The notes under the pieces are model-generated. The model was not told the DNA's origin. It was given only the letters and a program-made list of their open reading frames with translations, and searched no databases. A stretch of DNA of 64,000 nucleotides from Reclinomonas americana ATCC 50394 (taxonomy: Eukaryota): positions 75,275-139,274 of the forward strand of contig PS015026.1 in assembly GCA_048213135.1 (NCBI GenBank). Direction: 5' to 3'. Made by a program: the position numbers and the translations under genes. Of this stretch, positions 27-64,000 are shown in pieces (the first letter of the stretch is position 1; each line of letters begins with the position of its first letter).

Positions 27-3000
27 ATGTCATCGGAGGAGAGCGGAGTCGCCGCCGCTGCTGCTGCTGGTGTACCAGTGGAGGCGGAGCCAGCGACCCC
101 GAAAGCGCATCATGCGCACGTTCCGCTGCAGCAGTCGTCGCCGGCGCACAAGCCCGCTGCGTTGCACAAGGACTTGACGGATGTGGATGCCGGCGACAAT
201 GAGGAGTACTCTGACGGGTTGACCTCAGCCGAGGCCGAGGAACTGTTGCGTTTCTGTGCTGTGTGTGGGAAGTGTGTTGCGCAGAGTGTTTTTTTCGGGC
301 ACGCCTTTCACCTAAATAGGCGACGGTTTACCGAGCTCTCGCACGCACACGGACATGAATGTGTCTATTTCTCGCTCTCACTCGCTCTCTCTTTCCTCGC
401 TTGCCTTTGCCTCTTCTCTGTGGGCGAGAAGCTGTCTCCTGTGTCGTGTTCGTTTCTGTACATTAGATTGATGACGGTGGAGTGTGACATGGCGGCCATG
501 AAAACTGACCTTCTTCTTTCTGGCATACAGCATTCAAAAGTGGGGCCCCAATGCCATTCCGGAGAAGACGGAGAGCGTGTGGATGCAGCTGTTCAAGCAC
601 TACATCCACGGGCCGATGCAGTACATGATTCTGGCGGCTGCCATTCTCTCCGGCATCATCAAGCACTACGAAGGTGCGTCTCTTCACAAGAACCCCCGCC
701 CGTCTTGTTGCCTGCCTGCCCACTCACCCTGACGATCGTCGCAGATCTGGTGATTATGATTGTGCTGCTCGTCATCAACGGCACCCTGTCGTTTGTCGAG
801 GCACGCAAGGCCGGTGATGCCGTGGCTGCGTTGAAGAACTCGTTGGCGCCGCAGAGTCGCGTGTACCGCGACGGCCGCCTGACAGAGCTCGAGGCTTCGC
901 GTCTGGTGCCTGGCGATAAGATCCTAGTCAAATTAGGAGACATTGTGCCGGCCGACGCTCGCCTGTTGGTCTGTCGCTCTCTCTCGTGTCCGTTTCTTGT
1001 CGACTTCTTCTGACAAAAGTACTGTGTCTCAACATACGCGCAGGCTGGTGAACCAGTTACTGTCGACGAAAGTGCACTGACGGGCGAGTCGTTGCCGGTG
1101 ACGAAGCGCTGCGGTCAGCCGATTTTGGCCGGCTCCATTATGAAGCTCGGTGAAATCGATGCTGTGGTCACCAACACGGGTGTCGTTGCGTACACGCTCT
1201 CTCTCTCTCTTCCTTCTTTTATCTTCCGTTGCTAACTAATGATGGCATCGACAGCACTCGTTCCTCGGCAAGTCGGCGGCGCTGGTGGCGTCGGTGGAGA
1301 ACGTCGGCCACTTCCAGCGTGTACTGTTCTGGATCGCCATGATCATGGTGTTCGCCGCCATCCTCCTCGTCGTCATCATCCTCATTGTGCAGCTGACGCG
1401 CGGTGCGCCGCTTGGCGAGACCGCCCAGCTGTGCGTCATTGTGCTTGTCGGTATGTTGCCATCCATCCTGTTTTTGTGAATGGTAACAGTCGTATTCACT
1501 TGTTTTTTGTCACCCACAGCCTCGATTCCGATTGCGCTGCCGGTGGTGGCGACGGGAACCATGGCCATTGGTGCACGCAAGCTGGCGCGCGCCAACGCCA
1601 TTGTGGCTCGCCTGTCGGCCATTGAGGAGATGGCTGCCATGGAGATTCTGTGCTCCGACAAGACCGGCACCCTCACCAAGGTACCCTACCCACTCGCCAC
1701 ACGTTCTTTCCCGTCTCCCATGTGCTAACTTCCATTTTGCTCGTGCACCACAGAACATCCTCACGGTGAAGGAGCCGTTTGTGATCAACGGAGTGCAGCC
1801 GGGCGAGTTGTACCTGGCGGCGGCTCTGGCCTCCAAGCACGAGCACGCGGATGCGATTGACACGGCCATTAGCCAGATGATCCCCGACAAGAGCGTGCTG
1901 GCCGATTTCCGCGTCGAGAAGTTTGTGCCGTTCGGTCCCATTACCAAGCGCACGGAGGCCAGGATCTTCCACACCGCCACTGGTCGTACGTTCACAGTCA
2001 CCAAGGGCGCGCCGCAGATGCTGTACGAGCTCGACGGCGAGCGACAGTCGCAAGAGATTATTGACCAGATTGAGCAGTGGGTGGTGGCCCTGGCTGCTCG
2101 CGGACTGCGCCCTCTGGGTAAGTTTTCATGTGGTGGCAAGTGGGGAAAGCGTGTGTGCTGATAAGTGTGTAATGCGCAGGTGTCGCCCGCAAGGACGAGG
2201 GTGGCTCGTGGGAGTACCTCGGCCTCATCTCCATGTTTGATCCGCCTCGCGACGACACTCGCCAGACGATTGAGCGCGCTCTGGAGATGGGCGTCGACGT
2301 GAAGATGGTCACTGGCGATCACTTGCTGATTGGACAGGAGACTGCTCGCGTGCTCGGCATGGTGAGACACCATGTTCTCTCTCCTTCCTTAGCCTTCGAT
2401 GCTCTCTACTCACCTCCCCTCACAGGGCGACAAATTCTACGGCCACGATTTCTTCACGCTGATCAGCACCATGCCCGAGTCGTACATTGGCGAGCTGGTC
2501 GAGAACGCCGACGGTTTCGCACAAGTGTACCCCGAGCACAAGTTCTTCATTGTGGAGTCACTGCAAAAGGCCGGTCACGTCACTGGCATGACGGGCGATG
2601 GTGTCAACGATGCTCCGGCGCTCAAGCGTGCCGATGTCGGGTGTGTTAATATTGTCAACTCGTCTTGTTTACTGTGGCCGTTTGTCCTCACTTTTTTTTC
2701 CACCTTGCAGCATTGCTGTGCACGGCGCTACTGACGCTGCGCGTGCGGCCGCCGATATCGTGCTGCTGACACAGGGTCTGTCGGTGGTCATTACGGCGCT
2801 GCTGCGCTCCCGCAAGATCTTCCAGCGCATGAAGAACTACATCATCTACCAGATCAACCGCACGGTGCAGATCCTCATCTTCGTCTTCATCGCCGTCATC
2901 TTCCTCCACGACATCGACAGCAACTCGCCGCTGGCCATTCCCGCCATTATCCTCGTGCTCATCACCGTCATCAACGACGGCACCGTCATCAGCATTGCCT

Positions 3001-62243: not shown

Positions 62244-64000
62244 ATGTCTTCCAAGCGCGTCATGGTGTCTCAAGAAAAGGTGCNNNNNNNNNNNNNNNNN
62301 NNNNNNNNNNNNNNNNNNNNNNNNNNNNNNNNNNNNNNNNNNNNNNNNNNNNNNNNNNNNNNNNNNNNNNNNNNNNNNNNNNNNNNNNNNNNNNNNNNNN
62401 NNNNNNNNNNNNNNNNNNNNNNNNNNNNNNNNNNNNNNNNNNNNNNNNNNNNNNNNNNNNNNNNNNNNNNNNNNNNNNNNNNNNNNNNNNNNNNNNNNNN
62501 NNNNNNNNNNNNNNNNNNNNNNNNNNNNNNNNNNNNNNNNNNNNNNNNNNNNNNNNNNNNNNNNNNNNNNNNNNNNNNNTCTCTCTTTCTTTCGTTAGTC
62601 ACAATGTGCAGTCGACTCACTCACACGCTGTGAAGGCACGAGCTGCTCTGCTGGCACACCACCCCTTTGCTCTGTGTGGTGCCGACCTCGCCGACTCTGC
62701 ACACACTCTGTGCGCGGTGATTGACTGCCCAGAGAGTGCCTCTCGCATCACCAGTGAAGAGGAGCTTGTCGACGCCGTGGTCTCGGCCGGAAGCATGGTC
62801 GGTCAAAGTCACGACCCCAATTGAAGCTGCATGTCGTTCCGATCGTTCGACTGACCGAGTGTAATATTATCGAACATGTGTGTGTCTAGCAATTGCGTGA
62901 TGCGTTGTCGGTGGTGGATGTGCAGCAGCTGGCGAGCAAGATGGGCGTGAAGGTGCCGCCGGTGGTGACCAACCCGCGCGCCCATCAGCGAGTGGTGAAA
63001 CAGGTGTGTACGGAAGCGGTGTCTTGTTCGGATTCGAGAACGAGAGAAACTGACTCTTGTTTTGCTGGTGCAGCTCATGCAGCGGTGGACGGAAGAGGTG
63101 GAGGTCGACGACGAGGAGCAGGGTGGCGGGTCGAAGCGGCGACGCGCCAAGAGCTCCTTCAATGTGTTTGTCAGCGATCAGATGCTGGCCATGGCGAATC
63201 CGCAACCGGACGATGTGGAGAATGTGAAGTGAGCGGAGTTGCCTGTGTGTTATCCATGGTGTTGCTGTTCCTCAATCAGGTGATCTTCTACGTGCAGTGC
63301 GTCTGCCCTCAACATGAGAGACAGGATGAAGGAGATCGGTTTGTGTGCATGCATGCATGATGCGTTGTGTGTGGTCAACAGCTGTCCCGTGCTAACGTTT
63401 TTGCCAGCTCGTCGCTGGCGCACCGTGACGCTGGAGGAGCGTGCCGAGTATCGAGATCGAGCAGCGCGTGAGCGTCAACAGCCTACCTCGTCCTCAAAAA
63501 AGGCAAAGAGCGAACCGGAGGCACCAGCCGCAAGCACCACCGCGGCTGCTGCGACTGCAGCGGAATCCGCTCCAGCTTTCACTCCCAAGAAACCCAAGAC
63601 CGCCTACGCCTGTTACACCAGTGCCGAGCGCAGTCGGTGAGCACTATACCGACTATTGGCTCGGCATACTTCCTGCCTGCCTCTCTCACTGCATGCTGCT
63701 CCAGTGTCGTCGCCGAGAATCCGCAAGTTGTCGGTCAGCCCAAGGAGATTACTCGTCTCCTCTGTTGCGTCGCAAGTTGAAGACCACGGTCACCCTTCCC
63801 ACACAAACTCACTTTCCCCGCTCGCAGCTGAAAAGTGGGCGACAGCCACTGCCGAAGTGAAGGCCACGTACGAGGCCATGGCCACGGCCGACCGTGAGCG
63901 GTACCAACGAGAACTGACCACGGGAGAAGTTGAAGGTCTGACACTCATCGTTGACATCGTGACATATTCACGCCGCTCACATGGAGTACAGCACCGCGGG
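62244..64000 (+). CDS. Protein with at least two HMG boxes, multi-exon, runs past the window end
   Basis: RRAKSSFNVFVS...WRTVTLEERAEYRDRA and PKKPKTAYACYTS...EITRLLSEKWATATAEVKATYEAMA...RERYQRE. Confidence 0.9.

Follow-up and report, generated by a model that had tools for sequence, protein, structure and literature searches.

Introduction

How does a cell come to use two kinds of 5' splice site, one of which looks like the other pushed a single base into the intron? The question is raised by a 64,000-nucleotide (nt) stretch of Reclinomonas americana ATCC 50394 (GenBank assembly GCA_048213135.1, contig PS015026.1, positions 75,275 to 139,274 of the forward strand; hereafter the window, in which all coordinates below are counted, on the plus strand unless stated otherwise), where a first-pass annotation listed 15 donors of the type GTTGCG, GTTACGT or GTTTCGT and took them for a routine second class with an extra T, used when the exon does not end in G. 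All 15 motifs are present at the coordinate and strand given for them, and as donors eight are verified by homology or forced frames, five are probable from frame and intron architecture only and two are ambiguous. Together with one donor absent from that list, the verified shifted set numbers nine, namely 245, 1185, 3613, 6576, 24701, 27377, 56807, 63764 and, on the minus strand, 14658, all of them GTT(G/T)CGT, and ten more shifted-type sites are probable or ambiguous. In this article, I will argue that these sites form a discrete class of genuine donors tied to the base before the intron, and that the favoured explanation, to which I give a probability of about 45%, is that ordinary U1 reads them in a register shifted by +1.

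Where the shifted donors are cleaved

Under a 12-intron model, the plasma-membrane H+-ATPase gene (27-4450; best relative 49% identical) becomes one open frame of 984 codons, which was aligned with 12 full-length homologues, and three of its introns begin with the shifted word (a slash marks the exon-intron boundary): T/GTTGCGT at 245-251 (intron 1, 286 nt, acceptor 530), with a junction that is gap-free against 12 of 12 homologues; C/GTTGCGT at 1185-1191 (intron 4, 70 nt), where the junction TGV/HSFLGK is gap-free against all 12 as well and the in-phase donor 3 nt upstream would remove a conserved residue; and T/GTTGCGT at 3613-3619 (intron 11, 484 nt), gap-free against the closest homologue, P0001. 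In the triosephosphate isomerase (TPI) gene, C/GTTTCGT at 14652-14658 on the minus strand (intron 1, 68 nt) is placed by alignment to chain 4mkn_A: exon 1 covers residues 16-28 with one residue to spare (it ends at 29), exon 2 begins at 30, and an in-frame stop lies four codons beyond the donor. The donor missing from the earlier list, T/GTTGCGT at 56807-56813 (61 nt), belongs to a WD40 gene; its intron contains an in-frame TGA, and the exons on either side fall on adjoining residues of orthologues P0129, P0175 and P0183, the tblastn matches overrunning the junction by three residues because both the intron (56807-56815) and the following exon (56868-56876) open with codons for Val-Ala-Trp.

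The remaining four verified donors are all T/GTTGCGT. At 63764-63770 (64 nt), joining the exons gives a continuous HMG box, the downstream exon starting at HMG_box profile position 37, and at 6576-6582 (286 nt), in a DOMON gene, the next exon begins exactly at DOMON profile position 33, the sole other in-phase donor (6663) being one that would add 29 low-complexity residues. The last intron of an SLC12-type gene, at 24701-24707 (61 nt), is forced by its frames, since the upstream frame meets TGA three codons on, the downstream exon lies in another frame and no other GT is in phase with the acceptor at 24761; and in an ankyrin-repeat gene no GT other than the donor at 27377-27383 (56 nt) is in phase close to the frame change, the upstream exon matching the Ank profile.

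As far as alignments and reading frames can establish it, the shifted donors are thus shown to open real GT-AG introns and to be cut ahead of the first G, since no reading but GT..AG keeps the conserved TPI asparagine that follows GGNWK-x. Cleavage falls at the upstream GU, with G at +6 and not +5, a site fixed by the TPI and ATPase alignments. Could the junctions be mis-set all the same, with the true cut at another GT or with TT..GN boundaries one base in? A one-base shift of both boundaries would preserve the frame and alter only one base of the messenger RNA; against this, homology is gap-free at 245, 1185, 3613, 14658 and 56807, moving both TPI boundaries one base inward turns the conserved Asn into Asp, every acceptor would lose its YAG/ register, and cleavage at the internal GT of GTTGCGT was rejected as out of frame, so that I regard mis-setting as very improbable. 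The wider hallmarks of U2-type introns are found as well: GT and AG ends, and restoration of the frame on removal, at all nine shifted and 21 ordinary verified donors (by homology or frames), and a branch motif with a pyrimidine-rich tract near the AG, weaker at the candidate 60365 on the minus strand.

The base before the intron

The association that the first-pass annotation had drawn with the last exon base can be recovered from its own list, where, in order of coordinate, the bases at -1 are t, c, t, a, t, c, c, t, t, a, G, a, a, c and t, and 13 of the 14 GTTRCG sites are non-G. Its sole G(-1) site, 54957, was counted correctly, although it is ambiguous as a donor. Within the ATPase gene the contrast it reported also stands under the 12-intron model, with G(-1) at 9 of 9 ordinary donors and T, C and T at the three GTTGCGT donors. 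Over all verified donors, G(-1) occurs in 0 of 9 shifted versus 20 of 21 ordinary sites (Fisher p=7e-7); when only strong-core donors are compared, it occurs in 4 of 5 verified GTGCGT versus 0 of 8 verified GTTGCGT (hypergeometric 5/715=0.007); and gene models give 8 of 16 GTGCGT versus 1 of 12 GTTGCGT-type (p=0.039), the one being, again, 54957. Counted over the 19 shifted-type sites, the bases at -1 are T9 C4 A5 G1, and four of the six phase-0 shifted donors follow Val or Ala codons for which a synonymous ending in G was available and is unused.

The description of the ordinary donor as GTGCGT or GTACGT did not survive, since GTGCGT accounts for just 5 of the 21 verified ordinary donors and GTACGT for 0; their consensus is G/GT-R-M-G-Y, with G(-1) in 20 of 21, G(+5) in 18 of 21 and the other positions loose. 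Likewise, the rule that the shifted form is used when the exon lacks a final G is correct in one direction only: shifted donors do follow non-G bases, but such exons also take in-register GTGCGT, as in the verified A/GTGCGT donor at 7141-7146 of the DOMON gene, where a TAG overlaps the donor and removal of a 64-nt intron restores the frame, and GTGCGT or GTACGT follows a non-G base at 8 more donors, known from the gene models only. What follows an exon unable to end in G would therefore seem to be a perfect core, in register at some introns and one base inward at others, with the avoidance of G(-1) apparently specific to the shifted form.

Taken together, the donors appear to follow two grammars, G/GT-R-M-G-Y, with a loose intron side and a near-obligatory G(-1), and H/GTTGCGT, rarely GTTTCGT or GTTACGT. 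The class is discrete, linked to a non-G base at -1 and made of introns that are otherwise unrelated in sequence. It is also, as had been predicted, no tail of independent position frequencies, from which 0.3 GTTGCG would be expected among the 30 verified donors and 8 are seen (p=4e-10). The word GTTGCGT amounts to TGCGT, the strongest intron-side core here, moved inward by one base to follow an additional U. Of the 19 shifted-type sites (in which C at +5 and G at +6 are fixed by the definition of the class), 16 have G at +4 and 15 have T at +7, paralleling the ordinary G/A at +3 and T/C at +6.

How often the motif occurs and is used

The heptamer GTTGCGT is enriched in the window, with 22 copies on both strands against 10.4+-2.8 expected, a number reached in 0 of 100 shuffles, or against 8.6 expected by an order-2 Markov model. 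This excess is accounted for by splicing, because about half of the 22 copies are donors listed here; the others include one exonic copy (53498) and two that are antisense to genes (17228, and 57832 on the minus strand). The 22 copies are preceded by A3 C5 G0 T14, and the word GGTTGCGT accordingly occurs 0 times among them on both strands of the window. No such enrichment was found in the window for the shifted analogues of GTGAGT/GTAAGT (GTTRAGT, 9 seen vs 12.7 expected). The nine verified donors and up to ten candidates stand among some 120-135 predicted introns, which puts the shifted class on the order of a tenth, with 3 of 12 in the ATPase gene, and makes it somewhat larger than the first-pass annotation had it. 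A gene-finder run given no knowledge of the hexamer, and with a penalty on donors lacking G(-1), placed GTTGCG at the top of the 39 non-G(-1) donors that it chose nonetheless (5 of them; background 0.76%, p=1e-5).

Such counts could arise with no special register at all, if these were tolerated donors set by GU with a strong branch point and acceptor, and if the GTTGCGT word came from the origin of the introns (e.g. biased insertion or mutation) or from an unrelated binding protein. The excess of T at -1 (14 of 22 heptamers), which U1 pairing does not account for, speaks for this, as do the non-donor copies of T-GTTGCGT (53498, 12393, 59902) and the ordinary donors, which show that intron-side pairing can be very loose. 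When 15 shifted-type introns were aligned, however, what they had in common was confined to their opening 7 bases and the terminal CAG, mean column identity being 29%, so that the intron bodies are not copies of one element; TGCGT is the optimal core of ordinary donors too, and the link to -1 points to a pairing trade-off. I consider this explanation improbable. Introner-like copies were rejected on the same alignment.

Less directed approaches were of limited use. A first dynamic-programming parse with no donor model placed only half of the ATPase donors correctly, self-training of a position weight matrix drifted to GT microsatellites, mixture expectation-maximisation on in-phase candidates gave no usable classes, and a "unique in-phase donor" filter left 23 introns, too few for use. 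A tuned run with neutral donors recovered 13 of 20 curated introns and 0 of the 4 shifted ones then curated, and GTTGCG near predicted introns was in frame in 8 cases and out of frame in 5, which is only suggestive.

Reading the shifted sites

The reading favoured here is that the same U1 small nuclear ribonucleoprotein would pair off-register at the shifted sites, U6/U5 later setting cleavage at the first GU. G(+1) would occupy the U1 cytosine to which G(-1) otherwise pairs, U(+2) would be mismatched and U(+3) to U(+7) would pair as +2 to +6 ordinarily do, a perfect GCGU being required to pay for the mismatch at U(+2); a G at -1 would draw U1 back to the ordinary, non-productive register, where UGCG mismatches. 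The same U1 might instead pair in a bulged register, where G(+1) and a single U keep their usual places, the remaining U (+2 or +3) bulges and GCGU pairs as +3 to +6, a geometry that U6 could share. This is the "+2/+3 bulge" arrangement of human sites, in which GUU is followed by the consensus (PMC4856993); it keeps G(+1)/U(+2) where they belong and fits the sequence data as well as the shift does. A bulge would gain from G(-1), however, and the count of G(-1), 0/9 in verified shifted donors and 0/22 in GTTGCGT heptamers compared with 4/5 in verified GTGCGT, argues weakly against it, as do the four phase-0 donors that leave a synonymous G unused. The shift is preferred because it makes G(-1) absent and not merely unnecessary, and the bulge seems unlikely, though by no means negligible.

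The +1-shifted register of ordinary U1 also needs only one spliceosome, the economical reading, because branch and acceptor signals are the same as in neighbouring introns and both donor types share genes. The alternative is a pair of U1 (or U6) variants, in which a paralogue, its 5' arm longer by one base, would pair perfectly with GUUGCGU and serve the class. Its discreteness and near-invariance over 7 bases would suit such a paralogue, and Irimia and Roy raised undetected variant small nuclear RNAs (snRNAs) for the atypical signals of Ostreococcus (PMC2483917). A perfect match would nevertheless accept G(-1) too, which is never seen in GTTGCGT, and the two donor types sit side by side in single genes (3+9 in the ATPase, 1+4 in TPI), making a dedicated snRNA improbable. 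No snRNA genes were found in the window at gathering thresholds, and E<=1 gave only sub-threshold microRNA and small nucleolar RNA look-alikes, mostly over low-complexity repeats.

Several observations weigh against the shifted register. The register is wholly inferred, and the verified donor set behind it is small and was partly picked by motif. If pairing were shifted, position 10 of U1 would lie opposite the -1 base, and a U there, as in the human sequence given in PMC4856993, predicts A, which the T9 C4 A5 G1 distribution does not bear out; nor does shifted pairing explain the excess of T(-1). The shift is not needed merely for want of G(-1), because the in-register donor at 7141 exists, and the motif is not sufficient for splicing, because the sense-strand exonic T-GTTGCGT at 53498-53504 is unused: it reads through as an ARM-repeat helix, and its nearest AG would make a 37-nt intron. 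The hexamer GTTGCG is not enriched in the window (47 seen vs 47.25+-6.5 expected). In a screen of 256 hexamers for extra donors that improve the parse, GTTGCG came 13th by score gain and 2nd by sites used (13/45), behind non-G(-1) GTGCGT (14/66), the gains being dominated by a few large events (GTCTCT etc.). Finally, a strong acceptor 45-110 nt downstream of GTTGCG was found for 5/43 at both thresholds vs a 6.6% background, which is not significant with an acceptor matrix built from only 20 sites and several shifted introns longer than 110 nt.

A bolder extension, which I hold to be doubtful, is that U1 register and cleavage site may be routinely uncoupled genome-wide, with two adjacent U1 cytosines taking either G(-1)G(+1) or the slid G(+1), so that G(-1) and the extra U would be mutually exclusive. 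If true, the addition of one U would let any exon unable to end in G host an efficient intron, perhaps one intron in ten would rely on a register known so far from a handful of mammalian sites, and the organism would offer a natural system for how U6/U5, and not U1, fix the scissile bond.

Probable and ambiguous sites

Of the shifted-type sites that fall short of verification, A/GTTACGT at 6458-6464 of the DOMON gene (67 nt) is probable, as its frame shift is needed for the next exon; the alternative, an in-phase T/GTATGT 18 nt downstream, would make a 49-nt intron. C/GTTGCGC at 21712-21718, in the SLC12-type C-terminal domain (62 nt), has a gene model and an upstream exon whose alignment to KCC chains extends as far as the WW motif, and its junction stays probable because the downstream exon, searched alone against PDB, had no match. 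In the ARM-repeat gene, A/GTTGCGC at 52975-52981 (54 nt) is probable from intron architecture, with CTCAC 14 nt before CAG; its splicing is not provable from frames because the intron is in frame and stop-free. G/GTTGCGA at 54957-54963 is ambiguous, with an in-phase G/GTGGTT 9 nt downstream, at 54966, that shares its acceptor and was picked in another gene-model run.

Three candidates at 55-58 kb are probable on varied evidence. T/GTTGCGT at 55878-55884, absent from the earlier list, would start a 60-nt intron before a WD40 exon, pyrimidine-rich and with CTCAC motifs and a CAG acceptor, and would join a 35-codon ATG-initiated exon in frame; a competing G/GTGGCG at 55856 lies in a different frame. 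A/GTTTCGT at 57182-57188 (62 nt), also new to the list, is known from a gene model only, and a separate gene may start at the ATG just before its acceptor. For A/GTTGCGT at 57373-57379 (62 nt), any other in-phase GT ahead of the stop would leave an intron of <=41 nt. A little further on, A/GTTGCGA at 58551-58557 (70 nt) is probable too, a frame change being required there and the alternative in-phase T/GTGCAC leading to a 46-nt intron. The WD40 orthologues align over ~56360-57150 only, so that 56122, 57182, 57373, 57780 and 58551 lie outside the homology check, and the WD40 exon found no match in a word-indexed homologue search.

Two candidates lie on the minus strand. C/GTTGCGT at 60359-60365, in the SF-assemblin gene, is ambiguous and weakly supported, with an 18-codon first exon, ~143 nt to the acceptor and a branch motif ~48 nt from the AG. 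T/GTTGCGT at 9205-9211, not listed before, is probable, its 90-nt intron having a T-rich body, a GGCTCAC branch motif, a pyrimidine tract and a CTGCAG acceptor. A side observation concerns the hexamer: if ~17-19 of the 47 GTTGCG are donors, the other ~30 fall under the 40-47 expected on both strands, and the word could be avoided where a cryptic donor would result, or the background models could be off.

The surrounding window

The window is a gappy draft sequence of ~52% G+C, with 23 N runs that make up 5,870 of its 64,000 bases. Besides the H+-ATPase, the genes recognised in it are the DOMON-domain gene, ribosomal protein uS11/S14, TPI, a protein kinase, the SLC12-type C-terminal domain, the ankyrin gene, a NACHT-WD40 gene, the ARM and WD40 genes at 51-59 kb, SF-assemblin and the HMG-box gene. 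Introns in the window are short, most of them measuring 56-91 nt; they end in a YAG acceptor and carry a CTNAC branch motif, which lies within ~10-30 nt of the YAG in most of 20 curated introns (judged by eye, uncounted). Curated lengths are narrowly peaked, at 56-82 nt in 16 of 20, and this peak together with the near-invariant ordinary G(-1) is tighter than in most intron-rich eukaryotes. At 24586-24592, two in-phase G(-1) donors, G/GTATGG and G/GTTGCA, stand 6 nt apart before the acceptor at 24643; the gene model took the downstream one, and the human KCC sequence would favour the upstream one.

Some features of the draft bear on how its genes are to be read. The 3' end of the ATPase gene and the sequence after it are near-exactly duplicated (4245-4672 and 4935-5330) around the N run at 4673-4934, which is probably a gap-closure duplication. 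The N-terminal half of TPI runs on the minus strand from 14708 down to 12789 and ends abruptly at a gap, and its C-terminal half lies on the plus strand at 12067-12768, between N runs 11899-12066 and 12769-12788; the piece between the two gaps appears to be inverted in the scaffold, most likely an assembly artefact. On either side of the intron-poor NACHT-WD40 gene (41148-45434, minus) lie inverted repeat copies, at 39050-40697 (plus) and 47667-49557 (minus), in which six blocks of 152-422 nt are 92-98% complementary, and the long open frames within the copies had no Pfam match. The GTTGCG at 38900 and that at 49705 (minus) are copies of each other, as are those at 47839 and 40525 (minus), and the gene-model "donor" at 49705 is doubtful because its GTTGCG is such a copy. 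The NACHT-WD40 gene is itself a 1,429-codon stop-free frame with a NACHT domain followed by more than 12 near-identical WD40 repeats, whose uniformity suggests recent expansion or concerted evolution.

Significance and comparison with known systems

That donors are read in one register is built into splice-site models, gene finders and variant-effect predictors, and a gene finder trained on a single position matrix would penalise the shifted donors and leave the H+-ATPase, TPI and HMG-box genes truncated or frame-shifted. If the dependence on -1 holds genome-wide, it would also provide a natural experiment on the trade-off between exon-side and intron-side pairing, and a means of testing U1 versus U6/U5 as the definers of the cleavage site, which in mammals has been limited to rare sites and minigenes.

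A literature search of limited reach returned no description of a GTTGCGT donor class, only primers or unrelated papers. U12-type introns carry a /RTATCCTT donor and a TCCTTAAC-like branch site. The shifted introns resemble them as a discrete, conserved minority donor class alongside ordinary introns in the same genes, but their donor word differs, and in branch and acceptor signals they match the ordinary introns next to them; with GTTGCGT donors and CTNAC branch motifs, an assignment to the U12 type was rejected. A closer match to the ordinary donors comes from the Mamiellophyceae, where AG/GTGCGT donors with (A)CTGAC branch motifs are described for Ostreococcus (PMC2483917) and Micromonas (PMC3879977), sharing the atypical intron-side optimum GTGCGT, the G(-1) and the CTGAC-type branch motif. 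The passages on splice signals in those papers give one donor consensus, with no GTTGCGT minority (PMC2483917, PMC3879977), and most of the introns described there are sparse and highly uniform, whereas the present window is intron-rich with loose ordinary donors.

For the shifted class itself the comparison is with mammalian 5' splice sites. Shifted-register sites were described by Roca and Krainer (2009), as cited and re-tested by Tan et al. (2016; PMC4856993), and the sites here share their layout of GU, one extra base and then the consensus, with G at +6 and cleavage at the first GU, though the pairing in Reclinomonas is inferred; the shifted example oligonucleotide given in that paper also lacks G(-1) (PMC4856993). 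The +2/+3 bulge sites, of which 68 are predicted in human (PMC4856993), are similar in having GUU before the consensus, so that either U may bulge, but a bulge should tolerate or prefer the G(-1) that is absent here. According to the counts in the same study, all validated human non-canonical registers together amount to ~1.5% of 201,541 sites (PMC4856993), whereas the shifted donors of this window are a sizeable minority built on a GCGU core and not on AAGU, which suggests that an off-register reading of splice sites, rare in humans, may be in routine use here.

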